Assembly: GCA_963711465.1 (NCBI GenBank)
Contig: CAVQEG010000001.1
Coordinates: forward strand, 2,462,332-2,526,331
Source of the DNA: Chlorobiota bacterium
GTDB lineage: Bacteria > Bacteroidota > Ignavibacteria > OLB7
Reading direction: 5' to 3'
Length of the DNA stretch: 64,000 nt
Shown in pieces: positions 6,736 through 29,064 of this stretch. The first letter of the stretch is position 1; each line of letters starts with the position of its first letter. A program made the translations under genes and the position numbers. Below the pieces are notes generated by a model. It was not told the DNA's origin. It made no database searches and saw only the letters and a program-made list of their open reading frames with translations.

Positions 6736-7755
6736 ATGTCCTCGGTCATGGTTTCGCATGGGAAGAATTCCGATCCAACGCCCGCCTCGACCTTCTGCAC
6801 AGGTCCGCGGCATACCTCTTCCGCTCGATTGGCGAACGCTCTGAACACACCGGACACAGCACCCTCGGCCCGGATCGAGGCCGCCTACGCGCACTGCCTG
6901 CGCCTGGCACGCGAGCACTATGAGAATTTTCCCGTCGCTTCCCTCCTGCTGCCCCGGGTGCTTCGGCGGGAGGTAGCCAGCATCTACGCCTTTGCCCGCC
7001 ACGCCGACGACATCGCCGACGAGGGGACCATCGAGAGCGCAGTTCGGCTGCAACGGCTGGACGCGTGGGAGTCACAACTCGACGCCGCACTTGCCGGAAA
7101 CGCCGACGATCCGGTTCTCCTGGCGGTCGCGCATACGATCCACCGGCGGAATCTTCCGACCGAACCGCTGCGCGCCCTGTTGCGCGCCTTCCGTTTCGAC
7201 GTCCGTAACGAGGGCTTCGCAACACCCGAAGAGCTCCTGGCGTACTGCCGCTGCTCAGCCAATCCGGTAGGGCGCATCGTGCTGCATCTCTGGGGGTTGG
7301 CGACCGAGGATCGGCTCGAACTCTCGGATGCCGTCTGCACGGGTCTGCAGCTGACGAATTTCTGGCAGGACGTGTCGCTCGACGTACCGCGTGGACGGGT
7401 GAACGTTCCTCGCTCGGTACTGCGCGCGCACGGCTGGAGCGTCGAGCGGCTGGCCCGCGATGTCGCCGATGAGCACTTCAGACAGATGATGGCGGAGCTC
7501 GTGGCCGGCGCGGCCCGCCATCTCGCGATCGGTCGTGGCCTGCTGCAACGCCTTCCCGACCGCCGGCTGCGCATCGAGATCGCTGCGACGATCGGCGGCG
7601 CCGAATGGATTCTGAACCGGATCGTGGAGGCCGACTTCGACGTTCTGCGCATTCGTCCGACGCTTTCGAGGTTCCGGGGGGCGCTGGTGGGACTCAGGGC
7701 GATCGCAGCGGCCGTCGGCGACGACCGCGAGCCACCCGCGATCACGGTTCGATAG
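6736..7755 (+). CDS. Squalene/phytoene synthase family protein, HpnC-like (hydroxysqualene synthase-like)
   Basis: YENFPVASLLLP and FARHADDIADEG are isoprenoid-synthase Asp-rich motifs. It carries the trans-IPPS head-to-head fold signature QLTNFWQDVSLD. The exact start is uncertain (ATG at 6736 or a downstream start). Confidence 0.75.
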   Translation: MSSVMVSHGKNSDPTPASTFCTGPRHTSSARLANALNTPDTAPSARIEAAYAHCLRLAREHYENFPVASLLLPRVLRREVASIYAFARHADDIADEGTIESAVRLQRLDAWESQLDAALAGNADDPVLLAVAHTIHRRNLPTEPLRALLRAFRFDVRNEGFATPEELLAYCRCSANPVGRIVLHLWGLATEDRLELSDAVCTGLQLTNFWQDVSLDVPRGRVNVPRSVLRAHGWSVERLARDVADEHFRQMMAELVAGAARHLAIGRGLLQRLPDRRLRIEIAATIGGAEWILNRIVEADFDVLRIRPTLSRFRGALVGLRAIAAAVGDDREPPAITVR

Positions 7756-7860
7756 CTTTCGACCGGACGGTTTTTTCGTTAGAATTGATGCTTCACTCAA
7801 CGCGCAGGCACCGGATCGAGGGGGCTGGTTGAGGCCATCGATCCGATCGCAGCGACTGAC

Positions 7861-8784
7861 ATGCCGAACCTGATCGTATCCGACATCGAAGATCCCGCGC
7901 TGGCGCTGCAGCAGCCGAGGACGAGCTTCTACTACTCGTTCTCACTGTTGCCCCGTGACGAGCGCAACGCGATGCATTCGGTCTACGCATTCTGTCGGTA
8001 TGCCGACGACATCATCGACGAGGAGAGTCTCTACGATACCGAGCCAGGTATCGTGGAGCCGAACGACCGAATCGCGCGGAAGCGGGAGCGACTCAACTGG
8101 CTGCGCCGGGAAGTGGAGCGGTGCTACCGGGGAGAGTCGCGCCACCCGATCCTCGCGCCGCTGTCGGCGGTGGTCAAGCGATTCCGCATTCCCCGGCAGT
8201 ACTTCCTGACGCTGCTCGACGGTATGGAGATGGACCTCGTGCGCAACCGCTACCAGAGGTTCGAGGACCTGCGCGAGTACTGCTACAGTGTCGCCTCGGT
8301 GGTCGGTCTGATCTGCGTCGAGATTTTCGGCTATCAGTACGAGGAGACCAAGGAGTACGCGGTGAATCTGGGGATCGCGCTGCAGTTGACGAACATCCTG
8401 CGGGACATCGAGGCCGACGCGCGCCGCGGTCGCATCTATCTGCCGCTCGAGGATCTGCGCGCCTTCGGCTACACCGAGTCGGACCTGCTTGCATCGCGCT
8501 ACAATCTCCCGTTCATCGAGCTGATGCGCTACGAGACCCGTCGCGCCCGCGAGTACTACGGCCGCGCACGCGCCGCGCTGCGTCCCGACGAGCGCAAGAC
8601 GATGTTCGCCGCGGAAATCATGGACGCCATCTACTATCGGATGCTCGAGAAGATCGAGCTGAACGAGTTCAACGTCTTCGGGCGTCGCAAGATCAGCGTC
8701 AGCACGCCACACAAGCTCTGGATCGCCGTGAAGCTCTGGCTCGTCACACGGGTGCTGGTCAACAGACGCAGCGCGGACGAGTAG
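7861..8784 (+). CDS. Squalene/phytoene synthase family protein, HpnD/CrtB-like
   Basis: Motifs are SFYYSFSLLPRDERNAMHSVYAFCRYADDIIDE (first Asp-rich motif), ALQLTNILRDIEADARRGRIYLP and YY..M. The length is 307 aa. Confidence 0.78.
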   Translation: MPNLIVSDIEDPALALQQPRTSFYYSFSLLPRDERNAMHSVYAFCRYADDIIDEESLYDTEPGIVEPNDRIARKRERLNWLRREVERCYRGESRHPILAPLSAVVKRFRIPRQYFLTLLDGMEMDLVRNRYQRFEDLREYCYSVASVVGLICVEIFGYQYEETKEYAVNLGIALQLTNILRDIEADARRGRIYLPLEDLRAFGYTESDLLASRYNLPFIELMRYETRRAREYYGRARAALRPDERKTMFAAEIMDAIYYRMLEKIELNEFNVFGRRKISVSTPHKLWIAVKLWLVTRVLVNRRSADE

Positions 8785-8802
8785 TGCCTAAGACGTATTG
8801 AA

Positions 8803-9951
8803 TTGAATTGCCCTGAACCTCCAGCCACGACGAGCGTTCCAATGATCACCGATTCGAGTGCATCCAGCCCCCGCCTCTTCGCAGGCATTCCATCCGTGGC
8901 CCTGCTGCTCGGCCTGCTGCTGGTGGGCTGTTCCGGCAAGGGCGACCTCGTGGTCGATCCCAACAGCGGATCGAGCAATGAGACGTCACTGATCGCGGTG
9001 AACCGCGGTCAGACGCCGGAGCTCGTACGGTACAGCGAGCAGAGCGGGATCGTCACGAACTCGGCGTATTCCGACGCGAATCAGGGTGCGGCGCTCGATG
9101 CCGGCGTCGATGCAATCTTCACGTCGTTCGACAAGGTGTACCTGCATCAACGATCGACGGGGTCGATCACGGTGCTCGGTCTGGAGAGTCGCAAGAAGAT
9201 CGGCGAGCTGGACGGATTCGCCGGTAGTGCCGACAGCGGATTGTGTGACATGGCGTTCAGCAACCTCTCTCAGGCGTGGGTGGTTTCATTCGCTGCACGC
9301 AAGCTCTATCTGATCGACGCGGTGAATCTGGCGCCCGGCACGGAGGAGCCGATCGACCTTCCCGGCAATCCCACGAGCGTCGGCGCGGTCGGCACCAGGG
9401 TGTTTGTCGGAATGGTCATGCCGGACGGTAGTGCCCAGGCAGCAATTCTCAGCAGCAATGCCGGCGTCTACTCCGTGGAGGGAATGATTCCGACGGAGAG
9501 TCCGGTGATATACATCGCCGGCAATCCGGACAACGACGAGGTGCTCATGCTCACCTCGGGCACGCCCGGCGGCCAGCCGCAGCTGCATGCCTACGACGCG
9601 ACGACGCTCGAGCAGCTGACCGAGACGGCGATTCCATCGGTCGACATGCGCGCGATGATCGGTCAGGAGCCCAATTTCGCCGCGATTTCCTACGACAACT
9701 ACCTCTACATCGCCGGACCCGAATCACTCGTCCGAGTCGACACCAAGAGCCGTCAGCGCAAGCGGGCGAGCGTCATTCTCCAGCGCGCCTATCCCGTGAT
9801 CGCCGTCGACTACTTCACCGATCTGCTCTATGCCTGGTCACCAGGCAGCGACGGGATCCAGCGCTATACCGTCGACGGCAACGAATTGGAGTCGATCCCT
9901 GTGACCGATCCCGTCACGGCGATCGGATTCGTACGGCAGAACCAGATGTAG
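8803..9951 (+). CDS. Putative lipoprotein of unknown function (secreted, repeat/beta-rich)
   Basis: N-terminal signal with lipobox (ALLLGLLLVGCSGKG). There is no recognisable catalytic motif. The real start may be ATG at 8842 (MITDS...). Confidence 0.55.
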   Translation: MNCPEPPATTSVPMITDSSASSPRLFAGIPSVALLLGLLLVGCSGKGDLVVDPNSGSSNETSLIAVNRGQTPELVRYSEQSGIVTNSAYSDANQGAALDAGVDAIFTSFDKVYLHQRSTGSITVLGLESRKKIGELDGFAGSADSGLCDMAFSNLSQAWVVSFAARKLYLIDAVNLAPGTEEPIDLPGNPTSVGAVGTRVFVGMVMPDGSAQAAILSSNAGVYSVEGMIPTESPVIYIAGNPDNDEVLMLTSGTPGGQPQLHAYDATTLEQLTETAIPSVDMRAMIGQEPNFAAISYDNYLYIAGPESLVRVDTKSRQRKRASVILQRAYPVIAVDYFTDLLYAWSPGSDGIQRYTVDGNELESIPVTDPVTAIGFVRQNQM

Positions 9952-13744: not shown

Positions 13745-15985
13745 CTACATCTGCAGGACGAGGATCTCGGTGCGCCGGTTGCGGCGACGTCCCTCCTCGG
13801 TGTCGTTCGAGGCGGCGGGTTCGGACTCACCGTATCCATGCACGGCAAGCCGTGCGCTGTCAATGCCACCGACCTGGGAGAGATACTGCGCCACCGACCG
13901 CGCGCGGCGCAGCGAGAGGTCGCGATTGTAGGAGGTCGAGCCGATGTTGTCAGTGTGTCCGCCGACTTCGATTCGAAGCGTCGGGTTGTCGTGCAGCAGA
14001 TCGATCAGCCGGTCGAGTTCGAGACGGGACCGGGGACTGAGCCGGGCGGCGTTGTACTCGAAGACGATGTTGTTGACCACGAATGCGTGGCCGGGAGTGA
14101 GGCGATCGAGCTTCACATCCCGCATGTGTTCATCGTATCCGGCGTCTTCGGGAACCTCAAAATGGTCGGAGTGAAATACGTAGCCGGGTGCCTCGACCGA
14201 CAGTCCATAGTCGCGACCCGGACGGAGCACGGCGGTGTACCGACCGCTGAGCGAATCGTTTCGCGCGCGATAAACAACCGACTGTTCGGCGAGGTCCTCG
14301 ATGGTGATCGATGCGTTGACCGGCTGCGACGTATTCCTGTCGCTGACCCGCAGGTCCACGAGTACGACGCGAGCCATGCGACGAACCTCGGGCATCGCCG
14401 ACTGAAGGCCCACGGTTCCGAAGTCCGGCGGTGCAAGCGTCGACGAGGCAGCGGCCAGGCGAAGCATGGCGACGTCGGAGACTTCCGGACGGGGCGGCAG
14501 GTGCAACAGCGACTCGACGGTCGGGACGCGATCGATGGGAATAGCAATGGCCCGTGGCGCGGCCATCGGTGTGTTCAGCGGAGCGACGTTCCGCAGATTC
14601 ACTGCCGAAATCACGCCTCCCAACGTCGACGCAGAAGATTCGATCGCGTTCGGAAGCCGCCGCGACAGCACACGGTCGATGTCAGCCGGTGGGCGAACGA
14701 CGAGCTCCGGCCGATCCTCCGGGATGGCGGCACCGACTGCCTCGTGCGCCGCCGGGCCACGGGGCTCGACGACGGGTTGATCCGACGGACGAATGCGCGG
14801 CGGCAGGTCGGCATGGGCGATGACGGTCGGCCCGGTCGCAGGGTCGGAATTCCCGAATCGAAGCGGCGTCTGTCGGCGCGGTCGCAGGTCGGGAACGGCC
14901 ATCGCCGCTCCGTCGGCAAATCCACCGAGCGAACGCGTACGAATCGTCGGTGCAAGCTCGAGCTTCGAGGAGAAGTCGAGCGGATCGGCAAGTACGGGAA
15001 CCGACGAGGCGATCGACTCGTCGTGCGCCCCGCCCGAGACGATTCCGAGAAGCACCGGCTCCTGCCAACCCGACTGTTGTTCGACCGTCACGAACACGGA
15101 CTCGACTCCGGTAGCCGTATCGTACGATGCAAAGAACAGCGTTCTGCCGTCGGGACCGAGATGCGGCGCGTAGCATCCGCCGGGACGGTTGACCGCACCG
15201 CTCAACAGCGTCGGGTATTCCCACGAACCGCTGGAGTCGCGCCGCGAAATCCAGATCTGATGATGATCCGTCGGCGAATGCACCGTCGTGGCAAAATAGA
15301 ATGTTCGCTCGTCGCGACTGATTGCAGCACCATAGACACGGAACTGACGACTGCGATTTCTCGTTCGGAAGAACTCGGCGATTCCGCCACCCATACCGTG
15401 CACCGACGTCCACTCCGCTCCGTGCAGCTCCGCGATGTAGTACGGACCGCCATCGAGCTCCCATCCTCGCTTGAGCGAGGTGAAGTAGACCGTACGGCCG
15501 TCGGGGCCGATAGCGGCGATGGCGTCGTCGCAGTTCGAATTGATCTCCGGCCCCATGTTGACCGGCCGACCCCATGGAGAACCATCACCATCAGAACGAA
15601 GCGCGAAGTAGATATCCTCGTCGAACCGACGGCTGGTCGAGTCGAACCTGGCCCAGGAGCGCGCGCCCTGGCGGGTCGAGTTGAAGAACAGAATGCTGCT
15701 GTCGGAAGTGACGAGAGGGGTGTTGTCGCGAGGAAGGTCGGGGGTGGTGCTGACGGCGCGTGCGGTGGCGACCTCGCCCGGCGGACCGCTCGGTAGCAGT
15801 CCTCGGTGGGTCGCCCCACCGGGAAGCAGCTCACGCTGTGCGTGTGCCGATGGCGCGGTCGCGAGCAGCGTGAGCAGTAGAAGCGCCGCCGCGACACTAT
15901 TATATATAGTGTAGTTCCAGGTCGTCTGAACTGCGCCCATGGCCGTATTGGTGTTTGATTGCCCTACGAGACGGCCGGTGTCCAT
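13745..15985 (-). CDS. OmpA-family outer-membrane protein with TolB-like (PD40) beta-propeller repeats
   Basis: Signal peptide AAALLLLTLLATAPSAHAQ. There are repeated WD40-like propeller blades (YFATT..., FFAS...). The C-terminal OmpA domain is LRIEVGGHTDNIGSTSYNRDLSLRRARSVAQYLSQVGGIDSARLAVHGYGESEP. Confidence 0.82.
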   Translation of the reverse strand: MDTGRLVGQSNTNTAMGAVQTTWNYTIYNSVAAALLLLTLLATAPSAHAQRELLPGGATHRGLLPSGPPGEVATARAVSTTPDLPRDNTPLVTSDSSILFFNSTRQGARSWARFDSTSRRFDEDIYFALRSDGDGSPWGRPVNMGPEINSNCDDAIAAIGPDGRTVYFTSLKRGWELDGGPYYIAELHGAEWTSVHGMGGGIAEFFRTRNRSRQFRVYGAAISRDERTFYFATTVHSPTDHHQIWISRRDSSGSWEYPTLLSGAVNRPGGCYAPHLGPDGRTLFFASYDTATGVESVFVTVEQQSGWQEPVLLGIVSGGAHDESIASSVPVLADPLDFSSKLELAPTIRTRSLGGFADGAAMAVPDLRPRRQTPLRFGNSDPATGPTVIAHADLPPRIRPSDQPVVEPRGPAAHEAVGAAIPEDRPELVVRPPADIDRVLSRRLPNAIESSASTLGGVISAVNLRNVAPLNTPMAAPRAIAIPIDRVPTVESLLHLPPRPEVSDVAMLRLAAASSTLAPPDFGTVGLQSAMPEVRRMARVVLVDLRVSDRNTSQPVNASITIEDLAEQSVVYRARNDSLSGRYTAVLRPGRDYGLSVEAPGYVFHSDHFEVPEDAGYDEHMRDVKLDRLTPGHAFVVNNIVFEYNAARLSPRSRLELDRLIDLLHDNPTLRIEVGGHTDNIGSTSYNRDLSLRRARSVAQYLSQVGGIDSARLAVHGYGESEPAASNDTEEGRRRNRRTEILVLQM

Positions 15986-16181: not shown

Positions 16182-17885
16182 TCACAACTTCAGAACGGTG
16201 AACTCGGTGCGCCGGTTCATCTTCCGTCCATCTTCCGTGTCGTTCGAGGCCGCCGGCTTCTCGAATCCATAGCCGTGCGTCTCGATCCGTGTCGAGTCGA
16301 TTCCTCCGACGTCGACGAGGTACTCCTTGACGGCATCCGCCCGACGTTGCGACAGCCCCTTGTTGTACCAGGCCGACCCAACGTTGTCCGTATGTCCGCC
16401 GACCTCGATGTGCATCTTGTCCTGCTCCTTGAGCAGCTTGATCAACCGATCGAGTTCAGGACGGGATTCGTAGCTGACGGTGTCGACATCGTACCCGAAG
16501 AAGATGTTGTTCACCGTAAAGCTGCTCCCCTGCTGCAGGTGCTCGAGTTCGAAGTTCTGCGCGTACTCCTCGTAGGTCGCATCCTTCGGAATCGTGTAGC
16601 GCTTCGAGTAGAAGACGTAGCCATCGGCATTGACCGAGATTCCGTAGTCACGTCCCGGCTGTAGCACGACCGTATAGCGGCCCGAGGCAGAGTTGCTGTT
16701 GGCGTTGAAAATGGTCTTCCCTTCCTGCAGATCCTCGATCGTCACGTTCGCTTCGATCGGCTTGCCGGATGACTTGTCGAGCACCAGGCCGCTGAGCAGG
16801 ACCACCTGCGACGGACGGAGCACCGACGGAAGTGGAACCCGGTAGATATCGTCGTCGCTGCCATCACGCGAACTCGAGATGTAGGCCCGATCGCCCGAGG
16901 CAGGCACCGAAAGGAAGGAGTCGTCACCAGGGGTGTTCAGCGGCTCGCCGACGTTTGCAGGCTCACTCCACTTGCCGTCCTTGTAGACGGTCACGTAGAT
17001 GTCGTCGCCGCCCAAACCGCCGTCCCGACCGGATGCGAAGAAGAGGGTCTTGCCGTCAGCGGCGAGGAACGGAGCGTAGCTTCCCTTGGCCGAGTTGATC
17101 ATCGGTCCGAGGTTCTCCGGATACCCCCACTGACCGTCGTCCTGCAGGTGCGATACCCAGATCTGGTGCTGTCCGGTCTGCGAATTGACCGTGGTCGCGA
17201 AGTAGAACTGTTTTCCATCGGGGCTGATCGCCGCGCCGTACATGCGAAAGCGCGCGCTCAGATCGCGATTGCGGAAGAACTGCGTGATACCGCCGCCCAT
17301 CCCCTGGATCGACGCCCACTTGGTTCCGCTGAGCTTTGCCGAATAGAACGGACCGCCATCGTGATCCCACCCCGGCTTCAGCGATGAGAAATACGCACGT
17401 TGACCGTCCGGGGCGATCGCTACGATACCGTCGTCCTCGCTGGAATTGACCTCGGGCCCGAGGTTGATCGGATCGTTCCACACCTCGTCGTCGAGGCGCA
17501 CGACCGATCGCGTCGCGTAATAGATATCGTCGTCGTAGCGGTTCCACGCGGAGTTGAACCGCGCCCATTTCCGATCCCCGCGACGTGTCGAGTTGAAGAA
17601 AATGATGCTGCCGTCAGCCGAAATGATCGGGTTGTTGTCACGTGCATCCGAATTGACGCCACGTACCTTCACCGCCTTCAGCTTTGCGACGCCGGACATG
17701 GCGGTACCGGTCGGCATCGCACTGTGCTCATTGATGTGATCGGCGAAGATGCTCGCCAGTCGATCGGTGGAACGTCTGCCGAGCACTGTTGGAACCATTT
17801 GTGCCGGCAGCGACTGCGCTCCGAACGCAGCGAAGAGCGCGATCGGGATGAACCGTGTAGAGCGTATCAGGAAATTTCTGATCAT
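16182..17885 (-). CDS. OmpA-family outer-membrane protein with TolB-like beta-propeller repeats (paralog of 13745..15985)
   Basis: It has the same architecture as its neighbour. The C-terminal OmpA domain is MHIEVGGHTDNVGSAWYNKGLSQRRADAVKEYLVDVGGIDSTRIETHGYGFEKP. Trimmed to ATG at 17885 (MIRNFL...) with GGAGG 6 nt upstream. Confidence 0.82.
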   Translation of the reverse strand: MIRNFLIRSTRFIPIALFAAFGAQSLPAQMVPTVLGRRSTDRLASIFADHINEHSAMPTGTAMSGVAKLKAVKVRGVNSDARDNNPIISADGSIIFFNSTRRGDRKWARFNSAWNRYDDDIYYATRSVVRLDDEVWNDPINLGPEVNSSEDDGIVAIAPDGQRAYFSSLKPGWDHDGGPFYSAKLSGTKWASIQGMGGGITQFFRNRDLSARFRMYGAAISPDGKQFYFATTVNSQTGQHQIWVSHLQDDGQWGYPENLGPMINSAKGSYAPFLAADGKTLFFASGRDGGLGGDDIYVTVYKDGKWSEPANVGEPLNTPGDDSFLSVPASGDRAYISSSRDGSDDDIYRVPLPSVLRPSQVVLLSGLVLDKSSGKPIEANVTIEDLQEGKTIFNANSNSASGRYTVVLQPGRDYGISVNADGYVFYSKRYTIPKDATYEEYAQNFELEHLQQGSSFTVNNIFFGYDVDTVSYESRPELDRLIKLLKEQDKMHIEVGGHTDNVGSAWYNKGLSQRRADAVKEYLVDVGGIDSTRIETHGYGFEKPAASNDTEDGRKMNRRTEFTVLKL

Positions 17886-18067
17886 CTGGACCTCCGACGC
17901 ATCTGGACAATGCGCAAACGTGTAGTGCCCCGTGGGATTGGGCGACATACGCCATGGCCTGGAGGGACCCGTCGCGAGCGGTGTTGGACCTGAAGAACGT
18001 TACGGAGCTGTCGGAGAATCAATCACGGCGGCACTACCATCGGACGTCCGTTAGCGCATGTACTTTT

Positions 18068-18310
18068 CGCACGCCTGGACCGCGTGCGATACGCCGACGG
18101 ATCGGACCCGGATGGTTCGACCACGTGATTTCCGGAAGCTGCGGCTCGTCGTTACTGGACCGTCACCGTACGAACTGGACCGTTCCGTAGGTGTCAAACG
18201 ACACGTAGCGTACGCCGGAACTGAGTTTTTAATGAAAAATCGGGGAATCAGGGAACGATGGTTCTGGACCGTTGGACCTTGGACCGAATCATGACTGGAC
18301 CTGGATACCC
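18068..18310. repeat. Cluster of CTGGACC motifs, at least two in 7-nt hairpin loops
   Basis: 18068-18088 is cgcacgc-CTGGACC-gcgtgcg, a perfect 7-bp stem with the motif as loop. 18168-18189 is tacgaa-CTGGACC(g)-ttc(c)gta. Further CTGGACC/TGGACC copies lie at 18153-18164, 18262-18290 and 18297-18305. About 10 TGGACC copies fall in about 250 bp. Confidence 0.6.
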
Positions 18311-19060
18311 CCTCTGAATGAGGTAGACGGCTGCGAATCTACAACGGCGGGAGTGCAATTGTCAAGAGGTCCGCACGCAAAAAAACTTCGGAGCCCACCC
18401 TGCTCCCTACCCACTAAACGGACAAAACCGTGTAGGACAGGCAAAATTTCCACAAAAGTTGTATTGAGCGGGGCGGCGTCAGCCCGTAGTTTATTTCACC
18501 TTCTCACTGGAGACGGTCGCCATCCCCCCCCGCTGCCTTCATGCGACCCGCCACCAGACCAACACGAATACTTGAGAGGACACGTAGCCAACGACGGGCG
18601 CCGCAACGGCGTCCGGCGACCATTCAGTTTCACCACCACATCGAACCACCGAAGCCCCGACCTGTGCGGTACGGACATCCGGGCGCAGGTCGGGGCGGTC
18701 GGAGGACACGCCCCACCATGATGTCGGGCGGATCGACGGAATCGATCCGTCACCGTTTCTGCTCCGGAGTTCAATCTGCCGGGAGCTGAGGAGACGCCTT
18801 TGGATTACCGGACGTCGCAGGGTCGACGTCCGAAGCACGACGCGTGATTGCTGCGAGCGGACCCTTCCGATCGTTGTACTGCGCGCAACCACCCCCATCC
18901 CTGTTCGGCCGCCCGGCTCTTTCGGAGTGGCCGATAGTGGATGACGATACCGGTCACGGTCAATGATACAGTTGCATTTTCAGTGTCACGTATGGCCGGA
19001 GGCAACTGGTTGCCTCCCGAGCCACGCCCTGTTACACACAGGCTGGGGGAACAAGAAATC

Positions 19061-20287
19061 ATGCCACGCACACGAGCCCGCGTTGTCGAACCCATCGAGA
19101 TGTTGACCAGGCTGGTCAGCGAGTATCCGGAACCGCACAACCAGCGTCCGCTGCGAATGCTGTTGATGCTCAAGCGCGACGAAAAGATGACGCTTCGCAC
19201 CGCTGCGGACAAGCTTGGTGTCTCCGAGCGAACGATTCGCAGGTGGTGGGCGCAGTATCAAGCCGAGGGACCTCTCGTCTTCTGCCAGGCGAAAACGGAC
19301 CGCGAACGCCGGTTGAAGCCCTCGGAGATCGAGGCATTCCGCCAATATGCCCTGAAGCACGGATTCAGCGAACTCAGTGAAGCGCGTGAGTGGATCCTGA
19401 AGGAATTCGGAGCGGAGTACAGCGTCTCGGGAGTCGCCGCGCTGTTGCGCAAGATGGACATCCACTACGACAGCCAGTGGGGCCCCGGCGCAGAAGCACC
19501 CGACTCCACGATCTGCGACGGGATCGACTACGGCCCACTGCTACGATTCATGATGCAGGTGCCGGAGAAGGAGGATATCATTGAGACTTGTCACTCCCTC
19601 CGATCAGCGCTCATGGAGATGTTGCCAGACGTCGACTGGATGATGATCAATATCAACACTAGCCTTGCGCCCCTCAACTCAAGTGAGTACATGTTTGTTC
19701 AGTCAGAAAGTTGCGGCAAGATCGAGTCGTTTCTCTATCACCAACCGGGCAATCTGTCGCCTGACACTCGGCTGCTAGCAACGATCAAACGTCGGAACTT
19801 TCCGGTTGAGCAATACCACCCGATGACCTTTATCCATGTAACCGCCGGTGACTCATATTGCGGCAGCTTCATACTCTGGCGCGATCGTAGCAAGGCCCCG
19901 ATTTCTGAGTCAACACTGAGCACTGTCGATCAGTTGATGCCTCTTTTCCGGTTCATCTTCTCAGACATTGCCCATCGACACGACCGGCGCCAACCGGCGG
20001 GCGTACTCTTCCGATATGTGTTGGGCAGGCTGCACTGTTCCAAGACTCTTACCGAACAGGAGCTCCGAGTAGTCTCATATCGCCTCCTTGGAAACTCATA
20101 CAAGGAGATTGCCGAGCTCCTTCATATCTCAGTTGGCACCGTAAAGAAGCATCTGCACTCTGTTTACACGAAGACCGGCACCAAGAATCATGTCGACCTA
20201 TTTGCACGCCACCTCAGCGGATCCTTGAATGCAGACATAGCGAATCGGCGTCATAACGGGCCATCGTCCAACAATGACGTCGCCTGA
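19061..20287 (+). CDS. Transcriptional regulator with IS630-transposase-like N-terminal HTH module and C-terminal LuxR-type HTH
   Basis: The ORF runs 18941..20287. The likely start is ATG at 19061 (MPRTRARVV...). The N-terminus KMTLRTAADKLGVSERTIRRWWAQYQAEG...RRLKPSEIEAFRQYALKHGFSELSEAREWILKEFGAEYSVSGVAALLRKMDIHY follows the two-HTH pattern of IS630/Tc1 transposase DNA-binding domains. The C-terminus LTEQELRVVSYRLLGNSYKEIAELLHISVGTVKKHLHSVYTKTG is a LuxR/GerE HTH. There is no DDE catalytic domain. The local GC is about 50 % against about 65 % in the flanks. Confidence 0.7.
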   Translation: MPRTRARVVEPIEMLTRLVSEYPEPHNQRPLRMLLMLKRDEKMTLRTAADKLGVSERTIRRWWAQYQAEGPLVFCQAKTDRERRLKPSEIEAFRQYALKHGFSELSEAREWILKEFGAEYSVSGVAALLRKMDIHYDSQWGPGAEAPDSTICDGIDYGPLLRFMMQVPEKEDIIETCHSLRSALMEMLPDVDWMMININTSLAPLNSSEYMFVQSESCGKIESFLYHQPGNLSPDTRLLATIKRRNFPVEQYHPMTFIHVTAGDSYCGSFILWRDRSKAPISESTLSTVDQLMPLFRFIFSDIAHRHDRRQPAGVLFRYVLGRLHCSKTLTEQELRVVSYRLLGNSYKEIAELLHISVGTVKKHLHSVYTKTGTKNHVDLFARHLSGSLNADIANRRHNGPSSNNDVA

Positions 20288-20382
20288 ACGCGTACTCTAG
20301 AGACATGACGCGATCCGATTCGCCAACAATGCATGACATTGTACTATATTAATGGCGTTCTACTTCGGAACGAACCAACGCC

Positions 20383-21633
20383 ATGGGAAACTCGCTAGTC
20401 GTCACTGAAACGGATCAACAGCTTGCAGAACTGGAGCTGGCAAGCGCCGACATGCGTATCCAACAGCGCATTCGCTTCTTACGGCTGCTGAAGAACCGTT
20501 CGAACGGATCTCCCAACGCCGTCGCAATCGAAGTGGGATGTTCGCCTCGTACGGCTCAACGCTGGTGGAATGCGTACCGCGACGGCGGTCTCGATGCGCT
20601 GCTAACCGTGGGGACCCCTGGTCGAAAACGCGATACGAAGCTTCCAGACCAGAAGCTCGATCTTCTGCGGTCCAAACTTGCGTCGGATGGGTTCCACAGC
20701 GTTTCGGAAGCACAGAGCTGGCTCCGCAAAGAGCTTGAGGTCGAGTATAGCCGGACCTCTGTGTGGAATATCCTGCGATCAGAGAGTGGGCGGCCTGCTC
20801 GCTGGACAGCTGCGGCCTCGGGACAGTACTTCATCGATTCACCACTTGCGCCACCACCGAATCAGGCACCGCTGTCACTGGCGTCTGACATGATTTCGTT
20901 TCTCAATGCGCTTCCGACGTCCTCCGACGCCAAGACCTGGGTTGGCGAGTTCCGGGAGGCACTTAGCAGGATGTTGGGCGACGTCGACCGCATATCGATC
21001 AACGTCAATATGAACTGCAATCTGCGAGATCCCGAAAGCTATACGGTTAGCCTCACGGTGCGGCAACACCTTTCGTCAGACGATGAAGGAGACGCCGCTG
21101 TCGACGTACAACCGGGGGCGCGTAACGAAGGCGCGACCGCATCAGAGGAGCTCGTGGCGGACCTTCGCCGGAAGGGCTTTCCCTTGGACGACTTCCATGA
21201 GCCAACCTGCTTTGACTATTACTATGCAGATGTTGCATATCTCGGCACGATGATTCTTTGGCGCGATCGGACGAAGACTCCGATCTCTGAAACAACTATT
21301 CAGACGGTGTCTCAACTACAACCCTTCATCGTGTTCGCCCTGAGCGACCTTGTGGTTCGAAATCAGCTGGAACGGCCGATCGACAGCGTGTTCAACGATT
21401 CGCTTCAGATTCTGAGAGATGAGGCGGGCTTGACGCCGTCAGAGTCCCGGATCGTGGTGCTCCAGTTGTTGGGACATTCATATAAGGACATGGCCGACGT
21501 GCTGGCAGTCTCTGTGGATACCGTGAAGAAGCACGTGAAGCAGATCCACAGGAAGACCAACACCCGCGGTCAGTCCGAGCTTTTCGCAAAGTACTTCACT
21601 TCGCGGATCAGTCTGCGCGAAGAGGAGGGATAG
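20383..21633 (+). CDS. Paralogous transposase-HTH / LuxR-HTH regulator
   Basis: The N-terminus AIEVGCSPRTAQRWWNAYRDGG...PGRKRDTKLPDQKLDLLRSKLASDGFHSVSEAQSWLRKELEVEYSRTSVWNILR is the same IS630-like pattern. The shared middle motif is YLGTMILWRDRTKTPISETTIQTVSQLQPF, against YCGSFILWRDRSKAPISESTLSTVDQLMPLF in the first copy. The C-terminal LuxR HTH is LTPSESRIVVLQLLGHSYKDMADVLAVSVDTVKKHVKQIHRKT. Confidence 0.7.
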   Translation: MGNSLVVTETDQQLAELELASADMRIQQRIRFLRLLKNRSNGSPNAVAIEVGCSPRTAQRWWNAYRDGGLDALLTVGTPGRKRDTKLPDQKLDLLRSKLASDGFHSVSEAQSWLRKELEVEYSRTSVWNILRSESGRPARWTAAASGQYFIDSPLAPPPNQAPLSLASDMISFLNALPTSSDAKTWVGEFREALSRMLGDVDRISINVNMNCNLRDPESYTVSLTVRQHLSSDDEGDAAVDVQPGARNEGATASEELVADLRRKGFPLDDFHEPTCFDYYYADVAYLGTMILWRDRTKTPISETTIQTVSQLQPFIVFALSDLVVRNQLERPIDSVFNDSLQILRDEAGLTPSESRIVVLQLLGHSYKDMADVLAVSVDTVKKHVKQIHRKTNTRGQSELFAKYFTSRISLREEEG

Positions 21634-21865
21634 CCCGAGAAGTTCCTACCACCCTCAATCGTCAGCAATCGCCGCCGAACCTAACGCTCCACCCCCGGCC
21701 CGGAACCGCAATTTCTGCGATTTTGCACAGATTCAGTCGAAAGGTCCACCCCGGAATCAACCTTTCAGTTGACAGATCTCCACCCAACCGCCCTCTACCT
21801 TTGCACCCGTAGTCAACCCGAAGAATTCCCCAAATGTGTACTTGTCGGCCTTGACGTCACGGGGC

Positions 21866-21873
21866 TATGTTTG
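21866..21873 (+). promoter_or_regulatory. Bacteroidetes-type sigma-A -7 element (TAtgTTTG) upstream of 21926 gene
   Basis: TATGTTTG is a perfect match to the Bacteroidetes TAnnTTTG -7 consensus. It sits about 45 nt upstream of the ATG at 21926. TTG-containing candidates for the -33 element lie 16-27 nt upstream. Confidence 0.45.
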
Positions 21874-22465: not shown

Positions 22466-22507
22466 GCAGTCAGTCAGATTGAAAACCCAACAGATTCAGC
22501 CGATTGA

Positions 22508-22546
22508 GACCCCGCTCGCTGCCTTGTCCGGGCAGTGAGCGGGGTC
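22508..22546 (+). terminator. Stem-loop (intrinsic-terminator-like) downstream of 21926..22465
   Basis: gaccccgctcgctgcc-ttgtccg-ggcagtgagcggggtc, a 16-bp stem with one mismatch. No U-tract follows, which is common in this lineage. Confidence 0.5.
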
Positions 22547-22689
22547 AAAGCGGCACACGGATCGCCTCCACGTCCCGGAGGTGAGGGTTCAGACAGACGA
22601 GAGGTCCCGAGCAATGCCGAGAAGGTCCGCAGGTCCGACCTACTGCGCTAACTCCCGAACCGTTCGTTCCGTTTGAGTCACAAGGTGTG

Positions 22690-23960
22690 CCCAGCACTCG
22701 ATGCGGGGAAGAGGTCACCCCGTCTTGAGACGACGTGCCCGACAGGCATTGGGGTAGTATGAGAAGTCGGCGTCCTGCTCGTACTACCCCAATGGAATCC
22801 GCGGGCAAGTCCAAAGAAAGTTCAAGGGTCCAACGGTCCACGGTCCAGGTCCATTCGCCAATACCTGCCAAATCCCGTTACCCACTGCCTTGACAACCAA
22901 GAAGATGTTTCAGAGTGCCCTCTCTGTAACGAGCTCGAGCGAACGCCATGAGGTAAGATTGCTTCGCTTTTGAGCACCATGCCCGACCGGAGCGAAGGGG
23001 AACAGGTTGCCCCGAGTTGCGCTCCATGCCCATTGAGTTTCAGGGGACGGTATGAAGGGCCAATGCCCACGGCACTTCATACCGCCCCTTCGAGACACGG
23101 GCGAGCAGGGTAGAGATGAGAGGCCTTCTGCTTGAGAGTTTCGAACTGTTCATTGTCTTTGTTTGTGCCCCTTCTGCCGGCCTGATGTGGGAAAGAGGTC
23201 ATCCCATCCAGGCCCACAGTGCCCAGAGTGCCCCTCCCCGGTGCCCACCGGCGACGGGCCGTGCCCAACAGGTTGCGTCTGGTGCCCTTCAGACGAAACC
23301 AGTGCCCAAACGGAGCCGCGGCGGCGATGAGGTCTGCTTCCGCTGGCTCCAGTGCCCAACAACTCTGCGGGACGGTATGAGGTTGGCTCGATCCCACAAT
23401 CGAGTGTCTCATACCGTCCCGAACGGGCCGGGGGGCCGAACAGACAATTCGAGCAAATTCGCAGAACGTGTGTGATGTTCTTTGGTTTTGTGCCCAGACA
23501 GTTCGGGAGCCCGGGATCACGAGGTCCGATTCCGCACTCTCGATTCAGTGCCCAGCACGCTCATCGTGGGAAAGAGGTCATCCCATGTGAGCAATGTGCC
23601 CAACATGGCTCGGCCGGGAATGAGGTCTCCCCGTCGAGTTGTGCTCAACCCGGAATCGCCGGCTTATGAGGTCAAGCCCGTGATTCCATGCCCAGAAGGC
23701 GGGCAATCGAGGTTACCGCCGGTCCCACAGCCGGTTCGTCTCGTACGCTCGTCATGATGCTCGGCAGGACGTTGAGGTCAGTTCCTGCCGGGTGATGTGC
23801 CTATCGGAATGCTCCGGATGAAGGAAGAGGTCACCTTCGTCCCGAGCAGTGTGCCCAGCAACAGCTCGGGGCGGTCGCCAACACCACTGGCAACCGCCCC
23901 ATTTTTTTGCCCTGTTCCGTCGCCGACCGCCAGTCGCCGTGCCCACAGCCGCCGCTTCCT
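22690..23960. repeat. Non-coding region saturated with GTGCCCA (about 19 copies) and GAGGTCA (about 9 copies) motifs, degenerate ~350-bp tandem units with conserved hairpins
   Basis: GTGCCCA[A/G] recurs with about 20-bp spacing in 23218-23352 and occurs elsewhere in the region. The 18-mer GGGAAAGAGGTCATCCCA is repeated exactly at 23187-23204 and 23567-23584. Hairpin stems GGGACGGTATGA[A/G]G...C[T/C]TCATACCG[T/C]CCC occur at 23044-23093 and 23374-23424. There is no credible ORF across about 1.5 kb. Confidence 0.6.
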
Positions 23961-24024
23961 CCGCTTCCCCTATTTTTGTCCTCAGATACGACCCATCTCT
24001 CTCGATACCATCTGAGGTTCTCCT

Positions 24025-25817: not shown

Positions 25818-28310
25818 CTACCCTGTTGGTTTTCCGTCACGATCCGGATTGATCGCCCGCAGCGTCTCGGTCCGCACCCAAGCGGCGGCAATCCGCAGCT
25901 GCGGGTACTCGACAGCCCCGCCCAGCAGCGCGCGGAGCTCGCGCAGCGTCGCCCTCGGCATCCGCTCGAGTTCGTCGCGCACCCGCCGAACGATCCCTCC
26001 GGTGACGAAGTGCTCGATCGGCATCGCCGCACCCGCCTCCAGAAGCTCCTGCACGTGGTTGCTCACCGTCGATGGCTGCAGTGCCGAACGCCCCGCTATT
26101 TCCTCGAGAGAACACCCCTCGCCCCAGAGTTGATACGTCCGAAGCAGCCGAATCGGAAGCTCCCGCTCGAACGGACTTGCCGCCCTCGGCTCGTCCTCGT
26201 CCCGTTGCTCGCCTGCGCCGGAAATACTGAATACTGTTAAAGAAAGATGGCGCACCTTCGCGCGACCAGCAGACGTGGCGCGAACCACCGGCCGCATCGT
26301 CGCGCTGCGTTCGAGCAACCGCCGCTCGAGCAACCACTCCGCCAGTCGTGCCAGTTCCGTTCGCTCAATGTCCGCAAGTGCTCCGAATCGCGGATACCGT
26401 TCCAGTTCGGCCGATGAAGACGTTGCAGGCCGCACACCGCGAAGGATGTCAACGAGGGTCATCTTCCCGAATCGACCGCCAAGTTCGACAGCGGCGGCCA
26501 GCAACAGGTCGGCGGCCCGCCGGTGTCGCGGGGAGAGTTCGGCGTCGAAACGCGCGACCGGCGTCGGATCGACGTCGATTCGCGTGCAGCAATCACAGCG
26601 ACCACAGGTGGAATCGGCGATTTCCGCACAGAAATACTCGAGAATCACGTTTCGCCGACACGTCGTTCCGTTGACATATCGCACCATCGCATCGAGCTTC
26701 CGAAGCGACCGTTCCCGCCCCGATTCAATGGCCGCTTCATCGATCCGAACGTTGCGGGCCGGGAGCCGTTCGGCCAGGAACTGGACTCCACGACCGGGAG
26801 TCGGAGGAGTGAACTCGAGCAGACCCGCCGCCATGAGCGCGCGCAGGTGGCGTTCGAATGCCACCGGTGACAGCGAGTAGCGCCCTGCGACATCGGTGAA
26901 GTTGAAGAACGTCTGCTGGGTGAGCGCCGCGCCGCCCAGCGTCCGTAGCAGAGCGACGATGGCCGACCTGCGCTCCTCATCGCGCGTTCGCTCGAAATAC
27001 CGCTGAATTTCGTCGCTTCCGGCAATGAACCGCACAGCGGCGAGGCGATCGGCCCGTACGAACCGCAGAACACCGTTACGCTCGAGCACGTTGAGCACGC
27101 TCGACAGCGCCGCCACGTGAATTTTCGCACGCGCCGCAATCAAGGTGCGGTCTGGCACGAAGACGCCCTCACAGCGGCTTCCAAGGCCCACCTGGAGCAC
27201 ATCCCAGAGTGCATCGTAGACGGCGTTGACCTGATCCCGGGTCGGGCAGCTGGTTCGAATGAAGAATTCCTGGAGTCGCCGCTCTCCTCCATCGGCCAGC
27301 AACGTGCAGGCAGCGGGATTTCCATCACGGCCGGCACGCCCTGCCTCCTGGTAGTACGCCTCGATCGAGCCCGGCATGTCGTAGTGCACCACCTGCCTGA
27401 CGTCCGGCTTATCGATCCCCATTCCGAAGGCGTTGGTCGCCACGATCACGCGCGCCCTGCCGGAAATAAAGGCCTCCTGCGCCGCTCGGCGGTCTGCATC
27501 CTTCATCCCGGCATGGTAGATCGTGACCGGCAGCCGCTCGGCGTGAAGCATCGTACCGACGCGCTCGACCGACCGTCTGGTGCCACAGTACACGATCACC
27601 GACCCCTGATCTGCTCCCGGCGCCGTGAGCATGCGGCGCAGTGTCGCATCCTTGTCGGACCCCTGAGCAACGGAATAGGCCAGATTCGGCCGATCGAAAC
27701 CGCGAACGAACCGCCGCGGACGTTTCAGGCCCAACTGGCGGACGATGTCTTCCTGGACGGAAGGCGTGGCAGTGGCGGTCAGGGCGATGACGGGAGGACG
27801 GGCAAAGTGCTCCAGCGCTTCGCGAAGCTTGAGGTAGCTCGGGCGGAAGTCATGGCCCCACTCGGAGATGCAGTGTGCCTCGTCAATGGCGAACAGCGCG
27901 ATGCGAACGCCGGCCATCTGCTCGAGGAAGCGGGGGTTCTCGAAACGTTCGGGAGCAACGTAGACGAGCGAGTAGAGTCCGTGGCGGATGTCGTTCAGCC
28001 GCTGGGAGAGTGCGCCGAATTCGAGTGTGGAGTTGATGGTCGTTGCGCGGATGCCCCGTTGCTCAAGTGCATCGACCTGATCCTTCATCAGGGCGATGAG
28101 CGGCGAAACGACGACGGTCACACCCCGAAGCAGCAGAGCCGGCACCTGGTAGCAGAGCGACTTGCCACCGCCGGTCGGCATGACGACCAGCGTGTCATCG
28201 CCGTCGAGGACCGACTGGATGATCTCGCGCTGAGCGGACCGAAAGTCTTCGAAACCAAAGAAGCGCCTCAGCGCCTCGGCTGGCGACGACGGACGAGCTG
28301 CCTCGAGCAT
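25818..28310 (-). CDS. recQ: RecQ-family ATP-dependent DNA helicase with long C-terminal extension (HTH-like)
   Basis: FGFEDFRSAQREIIQSVLDGDDTLVVMPTGGGKSLCYQVPALL carries helicase motif I. A DEAH box is present (FAIDEAHCISEWGHDFRP). The RQC zinc motif is CRRNVILEYFCAEIADSTCGRCDCC. Trimmed to ATG at 28310, giving 831 aa, about 230 aa longer than E. coli RecQ. Confidence 0.85.
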   Translation of the reverse strand: MLEAARPSSPAEALRRFFGFEDFRSAQREIIQSVLDGDDTLVVMPTGGGKSLCYQVPALLLRGVTVVVSPLIALMKDQVDALEQRGIRATTINSTLEFGALSQRLNDIRHGLYSLVYVAPERFENPRFLEQMAGVRIALFAIDEAHCISEWGHDFRPSYLKLREALEHFARPPVIALTATATPSVQEDIVRQLGLKRPRRFVRGFDRPNLAYSVAQGSDKDATLRRMLTAPGADQGSVIVYCGTRRSVERVGTMLHAERLPVTIYHAGMKDADRRAAQEAFISGRARVIVATNAFGMGIDKPDVRQVVHYDMPGSIEAYYQEAGRAGRDGNPAACTLLADGGERRLQEFFIRTSCPTRDQVNAVYDALWDVLQVGLGSRCEGVFVPDRTLIAARAKIHVAALSSVLNVLERNGVLRFVRADRLAAVRFIAGSDEIQRYFERTRDEERRSAIVALLRTLGGAALTQQTFFNFTDVAGRYSLSPVAFERHLRALMAAGLLEFTPPTPGRGVQFLAERLPARNVRIDEAAIESGRERSLRKLDAMVRYVNGTTCRRNVILEYFCAEIADSTCGRCDCCTRIDVDPTPVARFDAELSPRHRRAADLLLAAAVELGGRFGKMTLVDILRGVRPATSSSAELERYPRFGALADIERTELARLAEWLLERRLLERSATMRPVVRATSAGRAKVRHLSLTVFSISGAGEQRDEDEPRAASPFERELPIRLLRTYQLWGEGCSLEEIAGRSALQPSTVSNHVQELLEAGAAMPIEHFVTGGIVRRVRDELERMPRATLRELRALLGGAVEYPQLRIAAAWVRTETLRAINPDRDGKPTG

Positions 28311-28358
28311 GGATTGATGGAGCGATCGTTGGGGACGAAACGTTCCCAATATAAAAAA

Positions 28359-28608
28359 CGGAGGCTGGTGGTCCAGACCAGCCTCCGTGTCCTTGAACAA
28401 TCAGTACTGAAGCATCGAGAGAGAAGGTGAGCCGGTGGTCCAGACCGGCTCACCCATGTTCTCATCGATCGCGCGCCCAGGGTATTCCCCGTGATGATTC
28501 CGACCGCGAATGTAGTGCCTCGAATTCCGGTGGTCCAGACCGGGATATTCGGTGAGCACTACGGACCGGAATCGGGGTCCGTTCGTCGTGGTCCGAACGA
28601 GCGAACGG
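28359..28608. repeat. Tandem hairpins with variable stems and conserved 7-nt loop GGTCCAG (CTGGACC on the other strand)
   Basis: 28359-28385 is ggaggctggT-GGTCCAG-Accagcctcc. 28425-28453 is ggtgagccggT-GGTCCAG-Accggctcacc. 28526-28542 is ccggT-GGTCCAG-Accgg. 28579-28608 is ccgttcgtcgT-GGTCCGA-Acgagcgaacgg. Stems differ in sequence but stay complementary, which is compensatory change. Related aGGTCCAGG copies lie at 28647-28655 and 28752-28760. Confidence 0.65.
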
Positions 28609-28983
28609 CTGTACGCGCATGACTATCAACGGTGTCAGCGAGCGGGAGGTCCAGGCCAGCTCATCTGACGTATCGGGCGACGTGGGCACGGGCCGATCCG
28701 GCAAACCGGAACTCGACCGTTAAGAATGCAGCATACCGGGTTCGAGGTGGGAGGTCCAGGCCCAGCCCGAGCGGTGATCTGCGATGTCACCCTGATAGTC
28801 AAAGAACAACGAACGAGGGTGTCCCCCAGCTGCCTTCTCCCCGTGATACTCGATACGGAAACCGCGTGGTGACTCGTTCCGTATCTCGACCGCGAGGGGC
28901 ACACTGGCCGCTCATTCGTCGCGGTTACGGATGCAAAGCTAGGGTTGCGGGCGGTGGAGATCCGTCAGCCAAAAGGTGGAGAA

Positions 28984-29064
28984 GGGGGGTGGATTAGGGG
29001 TATGAATCCCCCTCGACCCTGCCGAAATTCAGCGAATTTCGCGGAATCAAACGATCCACCCCCC
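28984..29064. other. Nested stem-loop element downstream of the MalT-like gene
   Basis: The outer 10-bp inverted repeat is GGGGGTGGAT...ATCCACCCCC. It encloses hairpins aggggtatgaatcccct and cgaaattc-agc-gaatttcg. It lies in the 3' region of the minus-strand gene that ends at 29127. Confidence 0.4.

Follow-up and report, generated by a model that had tools for sequence, protein, structure and literature searches.

Two neighbouring genes, ORF A and ORF B (ORF, open reading frame), lie on the plus strand of a 64,000-nucleotide stretch of contig CAVQEG010000001.1 from a Chlorobiota bacterium, which as a whole is called the window below. On the whole, our analysis, which is computational throughout, shows two proteins that are best read as LuxR regulators of the receptor type whose N-terminus carries an extra bipartite DNA-binding head like that of transposases, and we give this reading a probability of about 0.7. 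As part of the same best explanation, A and B are taken as working one-component regulators of transcription that are fixed in the chromosome and belong to a family specific to Kapaibacteriota-type bacteria. This family, a LuxR-family receptor-type regulator plus the added head, is sizeable, uncharacterised and restricted to one lineage.

A first-pass annotation made from the letters of the window had placed the two ORFs at 18941-20287 and 20383-21633 of the plus strand, where both are present, and had called them paralogs, in accordance with a BLASTP alignment of 405 amino acids at 31% identity (E 4e-58). The sequence patterns that it quoted are found in both proteins. For ORF A the start is most likely the ATG at 19061 (408 amino acids) rather than 18941, because the public gene call P0042 (408 amino acids) equals residues 41-448 of A at 100% identity, and because in the family alignment every homolog opens with M-[AP]-R at the aligned position. 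The nearest relatives of A are 36-40% identical to it and the closest homolog of B, P0001, stands at 60%; the two are therefore old paralogs and not the product of a recent tandem duplication, and A represents a distinct paralog lineage.

Domain architecture of the two regulators

The N-terminus of both proteins had been described as a helix-turn-helix (HTH) module like that of IS630 transposases, and profile searches bear this out. The Pfam families HTH_23, HTH_28, HTH_29, HTH_32 and HTH_33 match in the first ~135 residues of B and at ~70-176 of A (in the numbering of the 448-residue form), and the top NCBIfam match of both is the IS630 transposase model NF033545 (E 1e-14 and 2.7e-16), in which residues 72-176 of A and 33-139 of B are aligned to model positions 2-113 of 299, that is, to the DNA-binding part. 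The same model is matched by all 24 family N-terminal modules scanned (best E 1e-28) and is better by 6-18 orders of magnitude than the family ranked second, and the other recurrent matches of these heads (IS481, ISNCY, IS3 and IS21) are transposase families as well. Sigma-70 and GerE models are absent from the profile matches of the 24 heads, which rules out an N-terminus made of a sigma-70 region 4 or a GerE repeat. Modelled alone with AlphaFold2, the head reaches a predicted local distance difference test (pLDDT) score of 84.5. Its best relative of solved structure by sequence profile is the DNA-binding region of TnsB (E 2e-4), and the only Foldseek matches that cover both of its subdomains are the Pax5 paired domain, Mos1, SETMAR and TnsB. 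The Pax paired domain and SETMAR are domesticated eukaryotic relatives of the IS630/Tc1-mariner DNA-binding domain. The first-pass annotation had counted two DNA-binding domains in each protein; with a bipartite head in front of the LuxR module, the HTH units number three.

In the full-length AlphaFold2 model of ORF B (pLDDT 77, predicted template-modelling score (pTM) 0.48), a head of seven helices is followed by a disordered linker, an alpha/beta domain and the LuxR helices, with the boundaries given in Table 1. The best matches of this model in the PDB by Foldseek are the quorum-sensing receptors RhlR, QscR, SdiA, TraR, CviR and LasR (probability 0.9-1.0, ~270 columns), so the C-terminal two-thirds of the protein appear to have the layout of a LuxR-type receptor; VqmA, CodY and GAF domains come next. 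The suggestion that the middle domain is possibly a sensor thus agrees with a predicted sensor-like fold. No luxI-type or synthase-like family occurs among the neighbouring genes scanned in the window.

The C-terminal LuxR/GerE HTH had been recognised correctly, since GerE or Sigma70_r4_2 is matched in the last 60 residues of both proteins. ORF A scores 44.3 bits with GerE (PF00196) at a cut-off of 23.5, and the family profile matches with its C-terminus the HTH structures of VpsT, VraR, NarL and GerE at E 1e-7 to 4e-3. A further match, to EpsA (TIGR03020, E 1e-8), covers the end of the middle domain and the HTH on model positions 143-243 of 247, with scores (35.2 bits for A, 23.9 bits for B) well below the cut-off of 170 bits. 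Some homologs are labelled 'CsgD family' by one public source.

Taken as a mechanism, this architecture would work as follows. The alpha/beta domain, binding a ligand or a partner, would control the LuxR/GerE HTH at the C-terminus, a module with which known members of that family bind DNA in dimeric form. IS630/Tc1-mariner transposases grip their inverted repeats with a bipartite paired-like HTH head, and in A and B such a head, carried on the disordered linker, may give a second, asymmetric DNA-reading surface, which could serve for extended operator specificity or for the bridging of two sites. Transposition chemistry is impossible for these proteins because they have no DDE domain.

A lineage-restricted, modular family

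A word-indexed search yields 35 relatives that agree in length and are 39-60% identical, and an exhaustive profile search extends the family to at least 303 cluster representatives at E <= 1e-30 (clusters at 50% identity). When one genome per species is scanned, full family matches are confined to Kapaibacteriota-type metagenome-assembled genomes, some of which carry the labels Chlorobiota, Bacteroidetes or Ignavibacteria and a few of which are evidently mislabelled. Each genome has several family paralogs, at 30-60% identity. In an alignment of 23 sequences including A, 30 columns are invariant, and these are spread over all three modules. The same-length homologs, the invariant columns and the 303 clusters show A and B as conserved host genes, as had been supposed when they were taken for genes and not pseudogenes.

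In nearly all related loci, a gene for a homolog of one small secreted protein is located directly 3' of the regulator, so that the two form a cassette. Tandem cassettes are found at L011 (three, at ~332-709, 2171-4164 and 7001-8916) and L015 (two), and L014 has two regulators, which suggests that the family grew by local duplication. It marks a multi-copy, lineage-specific cassette of regulator and secreted protein in a poorly studied phylum-level group.

The head itself is present to different degrees. Among 179 family members retrieved, 106 have both subdomains (median 411 amino acids), 40 have the first only (351 amino acids) and 31 have none (261 amino acids). Outside the family, the nearest relatives of the head are stand-alone HTH proteins of 144 amino acids in the same genomes (E ~1e-38). 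Genes of these proteins (P0180-P0183) lie at 9637-10008 of L013 and 9526-9894 of L008, just 3' of regulator and small-protein cassettes. The family thus offers a natural series (no head, half head, full head, head alone) in which the value of a second, asymmetric DNA-reading domain in a dimeric LuxR regulator can be tested.

Transposon remnant, domestication or fusion

As stated by the first-pass annotation, a transposase catalytic domain is missing: the DDE families of Pfam have no match in A or B, in which the sequence after the head is fully taken up by the sensor-like domain and the LuxR HTH. A downstream DDE domain disrupted by a frameshift, named in the same annotation as the finding that would turn the genes into transposase pseudogenes, was looked for in the non-coding flanks by way of ten ORF fragments, and the DDE families give no match in these at E <= 1. 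With DDE absent from proteins and flanking fragments alike and with the full-length architecture conserved, a transposase pseudogene is ruled out.

The claim that there are no terminal inverted repeats stands in so far as nothing like an IS630 end is present. It fails in that a significant imperfect inverted pair of 25 nucleotides (CTGTTCGGCCGCCCGGCTCTTTCGG and CCGAACGGGCCGGGGGGCCGAACAG) brackets the block. The arms agree at 22 of 25 positions, more than in any of 40 dinucleotide shuffles (maximum 20), and each contains two TTCGG half-sites. They are 4.5 kb apart and enclose both regulator genes together with the small gene and two-thirds of a downstream motif array described below. There is no TA duplication at the arms, and no counterpart of the pair in related loci. 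Inverted TGGACC clusters also flank the block, which again is unlike an IS630 end. The island of low G+C content around the genes is likewise confirmed in part: G+C is below that of the surroundings, but at 55.6% in A, 56.6% in B and 58.1% in the small gene, compared with 62.9% in the window, it is not as low as the ~50% that had been given. The inverted pair and the lowered G+C, together with the N-terminal match to the IS630 model and the label 'transposase' that one homolog (P0028) bears in its source, are what speaks for A and B being decaying IS630 insertion sequences (pseudogenes or OrfA remnants) read through into a neighbouring LuxR gene. We hold this to be extremely improbable: no frame of the genes or flanks contains a DDE domain or a remnant of one, more than 100 cluster representatives keep the full-length architecture and the length, the 30 invariant residues run across all three modules, the paralogs with their 30-60% identity are no recent copies, the synteny with the small gene is conserved, and the inverted repeats stand 4.5 kb apart with three genes between them and no TA duplication. 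A plasmid or defence-island origin of the block is ruled out too, with no plasmid match found and only generic HTH matches in PADLOC.

How the head was acquired is a separate question. In the notion of a domesticated transposase module, two elements hold, the transposase affinity of the head and the absence of DDE, while the direction from transposase to regulator, which domestication implies, is no more than plausible. Since the nearest relatives of the head are the 144-residue HTH proteins, the fusion of a pre-existing stand-alone regulator accounts for its origin equally well. Taken further, the head would belong to an old stand-alone bipartite HTH family that merely shares ancestry with transposase domains and was fused to a pre-existing LuxR-type receptor, and 'domestication' would then be the wrong word; to this we give a real but clearly minority chance. 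The 144-residue proteins share the Pfam signature of the head (E ~1e-38) and some of their genes adjoin cassettes, no DDE-bearing protein occurs among the scored candidates, 31 of 179 family members have the core without a head and another 40 have half a head, and a review (PMC8987985) remarks how difficult it is to reconstruct which way HTH domains have passed between mobile elements and hosts. On the other side, the profiles by which the head is recognised are all transposase models, IS630 leading by the margin given above, the word-indexed search is of limited reach and distant DDE-bearing relatives could escape it, and the product of an IS630 OrfA-type gene would look like a stand-alone head protein too.

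The adjacent secreted-protein gene and its candidate promoter

The small gene 3' of ORF B encodes a protein without a Pfam match. A homolog search with this protein finds only itself, and its relatives are detected only by tblastn in syntenic loci; when the syntenic proteins are aligned, the orthologs have a few conserved core motifs and 20-27% identity. Between L003 and L004, the small gene (8581-9108) has 97-99% nucleotide identity, though the regulators of these two loci have 81-89%, and this suggests recent exchange or a constraint at the nucleotide level.

Two promoter-like blocks in tandem, P1 (ACCTTTCAGTTGACAGATCTCCACC...TACCTTTG) and P2 (TTCCCCAAATGTGTACTTG...TATGTTTG), precede the small gene at 21760..21873 and are conserved in all orthologous loci. 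The footprint of P2, CTCCYCAAAWGTGTACTTG (window 21826-21844), occurs exactly once per locus. Both blocks contain TAnnTTTG, which we take to be the -7 box of Bacteroidota. By sequence, the tandem blocks are the best candidate for an operator or regulated promoter.

P1 has a paralog in the window at 28926-28990 of the minus strand (CCACCTTTTGGCTGA...TAGCTTTG), and the form shared by the two is CCACCTTTYGGYTGA-N22-TAnnTTTG. This paralog aligns with the spacers between MalT-like gene and regulator in L001, L003 and L005-L007, and the regulator and the small gene therefore ancestrally share a promoter type. In the orthologous loci, a MalT-like gene lies directly 5' of the B-type regulator; in the window it is displaced and inverted, and its product is 38-46% identical to that of the gene directly 5' of the regulator in L001 and L003-L007. 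From the homology of the P1 paralog to the ortholog spacer it follows that a rearrangement brought the MalT-like gene, and along with it the former promoter and leader of the regulator, to a place before the RecQ-like gene. The window was also searched for the shared promoter block 5' of ORF A, and nothing convincing was found.

The direct target of the regulators would most likely be the promoter of the small secreted-protein gene immediately 3' of them, and in the orthologs a second likely target would be the promoter of the regulator itself, which carries the same block. The small-gene promoter is proposed because the small gene is nearly always 3' of the regulator, the footprint occurs once per locus and the promoter block is shared; that A and B control it we consider about an even bet.

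A number of results weigh against the reading of A and B as receptor-type regulators with an added head, and against the target proposed for them. The IS630 scores of 54.7 bits (A) and 59.9 bits (B) are under the curated NF033545 cut-off of 100 bits, as is expected of a partial match in which only ~110 of 299 model positions are present. A Foldseek search with the head alone gives no significant match, with all E values above 0.5. The matches of the ORF B model to receptor-like folds are weak (E ~1e-3, TM-scores 0.13-0.37), their low TM-scores being explained by the loose packing of the domains in the model (pTM 0.48). The autoinducer-binding family PF03472 is without a match among all 15 Pfam families that B meets at E <= 1 and is absent from the best 25 of the 36 Pfam families of A, which reach down to E 0.004 with the others weaker than that, and hence no class of ligand can be proposed. 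The GerE score of B is 22.8 bits, just under the Pfam threshold of 23.5, and B passes the sister model Sigma70_r4_2 with 29.0 bits against 25.7. The target assignment has synteny and the footprint as its whole basis. This reading gives no account of the significant inverted pair around the block. Finally, the third codon positions of ORF A have 67% G+C compared with 76-77% in its neighbours, and A has no small gene of its own, which leaves a later arrival of A conceivable.

A hairpin array downstream of the secreted-protein gene

The clusters of CTGGACC and GTGCCCA that the first-pass annotation noticed in the flanks are real and far above background. In the DNA 3' of the small gene, a strong hairpin right after the stop codon, with equivalents 3' of the small gene in L001 and L003, is followed by a strand-specific array of at least 11 units. 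Each unit opens with GTGCCCA(R)CA and as a rule continues with a hairpin whose loop contains A(A/T)GAGGTC(A). Of the 14 copies of GTGCCCA on the plus strand of the window, 11 fall in 22466-24024, where the minus strand has none; for GAGGTC the counts in this range are 10 on the plus strand and 0 on the minus strand, and four copies of GGTCCA lie at 22827-22854. An intrinsic terminator, GGGGCGGTCGCCA...TGGCAACCGCCCC followed by T7, is located at the end of the array.

Arrays are found just 3' of the small gene in other loci as well, namely at 10216-10960 of L001, 9109-9800 of L003/L004, 9084-9790 of L005, 7043-7890 of L006, 8954-9620 of L007 and 1629-2140 of L018, with 22466-24024 (+) as the corresponding range of the window. 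The loop motif of the orthologs is GAGGTCCA(G/A), or TGCCCA in L018. Distant paralogous cassettes, many of them with a complete head, have no array. The placement of motifs in loops was scored by explicit stem detection and compared with 500 flank shuffles. In the window, 7 of 10 GAGGTC copies are found in loops on Watson-Crick stems of 4 bp or more, no two of which have the same sequence, and none of the 500 shuffles reaches this number. In L001, 6 of 11 GGTCCA copies are in loops (0/500), and in L018, 4 of 6 TGCCCA copies (1/500).

Compared with an overall nucleotide identity of 87%, L003 and L004, two species, share 94-96% in the array, which is thus better conserved than the regulator gene, and 61-67% in the spacer beyond it. 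The ~230 nucleotides at the 3' end of the array align across six loci and adopt a hairpin fold in which 97% of cells are paired, while partners slid by 1-3 columns are paired in 39-53%. Seven of the 35 pairs keep their pairing through two-sided changes, and covariation is 0.270 against 0.147 in shuffles (0/500 reach the observed value), figures that come from about four independent sequences and from a structure derived from those same sequences. The array of the window cannot be placed in this alignment because the sequence profile of the ortholog 3' domain misses the window and L018. Rfam has no match at E <= 1 in the window region, nor at E <= 0.1 in L001, L005 and L018.

With loop motifs conserved and stem sequences variable, the array is more readily taken for an RNA element than for operator DNA, and we read it as a candidate structured RNA, a sponge or a kissing-loop partner. 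A reading of the arrays as replication origins with DnaA boxes was dropped: there is no DnaA-box match, the arrays are one-stranded and their neighbours are not origin-associated. Whatever its role, a conserved and highly constrained non-coding element with such an unusual repeated-loop design deserves a study of its own.

It is also conceivable, along the lines of the first-pass annotation, that the arrays are nucleic-acid partners of the regulator; one or both of its DNA-binding modules would then bind GGTCCA, GAGGTC or GTGCCCA, present as double-stranded decoy sites or as extruded or transcribed hairpins, and the array would titrate it. Arrays do adjoin B-type regulators in the window, L001, L003-L007 and L018, a few copies of the core motifs occur in both orientations in the regulator leader and the small-gene promoter region, and transposase heads of this kind normally recognise repeated sites in transposon ends, as is textbook knowledge for IS630/Tc1. 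We nevertheless consider such titration unlikely, for double-stranded operator sites do not evolve with variable stems and conserved loops, the arrays keep strictly to one strand, with an intrinsic terminator as their end, and are missing from many paralogous cassettes whose head is complete. The preferred target is the small-gene promoter.

The motif TGGACC is the complement of the array core GGTCCA. In the leaders of ortholog regulators it occurs in sense orientation (L001 at 7453 and 7540, L005 at 6376 and 6437, L006 at 4118-4317, L007 at 6260-6659), where 7 of 12 copies lie in hairpin loops, including a conserved hairpin GATAAGCGG-TGGACCTGA-CCGCTTATC; 5' of ORF A, 2 of 8 copies do so. Because the loop motifs of leader and array are complementary, leader loops and array loops could pair.

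These elements may be joined into a self-contained regulatory circuit new to the lineage, in which the MalT-like LuxR gene and the LuxR receptor with its head act together with the secreted protein, which evolves fast, and with the array, though the circuit as a whole strikes us as rather improbable. The 0.6-1.4 kb 3' of the secreted-protein gene would then be a structured RNA with 10-20 loop copies of GGUCCA or GAGGUC, complementary to the UGGACC loops of the regulator's own mRNA leader, and the regulator would receive feedback from this RNA, either through multivalent kissing-loop pairing or because the RNA sequesters a protein with affinity for GGWCC loops. The signal sensed by the receptor-like domain may be the secreted protein itself, in which case each cassette would be a private signal-receptor pair.

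Features of the window

The positions of the elements discussed are collected in Table 1.

Table 1. Genes, protein domains and non-coding elements in the window. Nucleotide (nt) positions count from the first letter of the window and amino-acid (aa) positions from the protein start.
Feature	Position	Strand	Remarks
TGGACC cluster, 8 copies (5 CTGGACC)	17985..18301	+	sense relative to ORF A, in the 1-kb gap 5' of A
Left arm of 25-nt imperfect inverted repeat, CTGTTCGGCCGCCCGGCTCTTTCGG	18901..18925	.	136 nt 5' of likely A start; unique in the window
ORF A	19061..20287	+	regulator, 408 aa; 448 aa with start at 18941
ORF A head, bipartite transposase-type HTH	~aa 71-176 (448-aa numbering), nt 19151-19468	+	Pfam/NCBIfam matches
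ORF A middle domain	~aa 190-350 (448-aa numbering)	+
ORF A LuxR/GerE HTH	aa 368-422 (448-aa numbering), nt 20042-20206	+
ORF B	20383..21633	+	regulator, 416 aa
ORF B head, helical bipartite HTH	aa 11-134, nt 20413-20784	+	domain matches, AlphaFold2 model
ORF B disordered linker	aa 136-165	+	AlphaFold2 model
ORF B alpha/beta sensor-like domain	aa 168-330, nt 20884-21372	+	AlphaFold2 model
ORF B LuxR HTH	aa 332-413, nt 21376-21621	+	AlphaFold2 model, Pfam
Promoter-like block P1, ACCTTTCAGTTGACAGATCTCCACC...TACCTTTG	21760..21811	+	conserved in all orthologous loci
Promoter-like block P2, TTCCCCAAATGTGTACTTG...TATGTTTG	21826..21873	+	conserved in all orthologous loci
Secreted-protein gene, 179 aa	21926..22465	+	signal peptide, two Cys, no known domain
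Strong hairpin right after the small gene's stop codon	22508..22546	+	16-nt arms, 94% complementary, no T-run
Strand-specific motif array, at least 11 units	22600..23908	+	putative structured non-coding RNA, or small-gene transcript extended far at its 3' end
Right arm of 25-nt imperfect inverted repeat, CCGAACGGGCCGGGGGGCCGAACAG	23419..23443	.	inside the array
Intrinsic terminator, GGGGCGGTCGCCA...TGGCAACCGCCCC + T7	23868-23908	+	array end
RecQ-like helicase gene	25818-28400	-
Rearranged copy of ancestral regulator promoter and leader	28427..28990	-	faces RecQ-like helicase gene
Leader hairpin, GTGAGCCGGT-CTGGACC-ACCGGCTCAC	28453-28427	-	rearranged leader region
CTGGACC, 4 copies, 3 in hairpin loops	28437-28759	-	28-kb rearranged leader
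Promoter block of the rearranged copy, CCACCTTTTGGCTGA...TAGCTTTG	28990-28926	-	aligns with MalT-to-regulator spacers of L001, L003, L005-L007
MalT-like STAND/TPR LuxR regulator, 923 aa	29127..31898	-	Pfam TPR_MalT, GerE, AAA_16

Upstream of the block, two adjacent minus-strand genes (13745-15985 and 16182-17948) encode proteins with PD40 (TolB-like beta-propeller) and OmpA domains. For the ORF at 16182-17948 the probable start is Met22 (ATG at 17885), the first residue of a signal peptide, and this start would lengthen the gap 5' of ORF A. Far downstream, at 53881-62797 (+), there are four tandem paralogous genes for FG-GAP repeat proteins of ~640 amino acids with a type IX secretion C-terminal sorting domain, which are consistent with a genome of the Bacteroidota lineage. 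Cumulative GC skew has its peak at ~15-17 kb and its minimum at ~50-51 kb, probably due to blocks of genes on one strand.

Comparison with known systems

As far as the searched literature shows, no bacterial regulator has been reported in which a transposase-type bipartite head is added to a receptor-type regulator that is otherwise complete. Where prokaryotes are known to have recruited regulators from mobile elements, these are Xre-type and ribbon-helix-helix (RHH)-type proteins. The head resembles the N-terminal domain of IS630/Tc1-mariner transposases (NF033545; HTH_23/28/29 plus HTH_32/33) in its two three-helix HTH subdomains joined by a short basic linker. Unlike these transposases, A and B lack a DDE catalytic domain as well as transposon ends, are not present in recent copies, and carry the head fused to a receptor-type regulator.

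By its predicted fold, the rest of the protein appears most like the LuxR-type quorum-sensing receptors and LuxR solos (TraR, LasR, RhlR, SdiA, QscR, CviR), in which an alpha/beta domain of the ligand-binding type is followed by a C-terminal four-helix LuxR HTH. These receptors lack the extra N-terminal DNA-binding head, while A and B lack a sequence match to the autoinducer-binding family. To EpsA and to LuxR regulators of the CsgD/VpsT type there is a weak profile similarity (EpsA E 1e-8, VpsT E 1e-7), but A and B are found without an exosortase or PEP-CTERM context and without a receiver domain.

For the array, the nearest likeness is to the CsrB/RsmZ-type sponge RNAs and to antisense kissing-loop systems, which also display one short loop motif on many hairpins in a unit ended by a terminator. 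The motif is GGA in the CsrB/RsmZ type and GGUCCA, GAGGUC or UGCCCA here, where Rfam has no match and the transcript is putative; a CsrA partner was not identified, no search aimed at the partner protein having been made. Another known kind of array, the TAACTGA heptamer arrays of Beggiatoaceae, Cyanobacteria and some Bacteroidetes, consists of contiguous heptamers located mostly just 5' of start codons and distributed genome-wide (PMC4679880), whereas the copies in the array described here are spaced, displayed in loops and tied to one locus.

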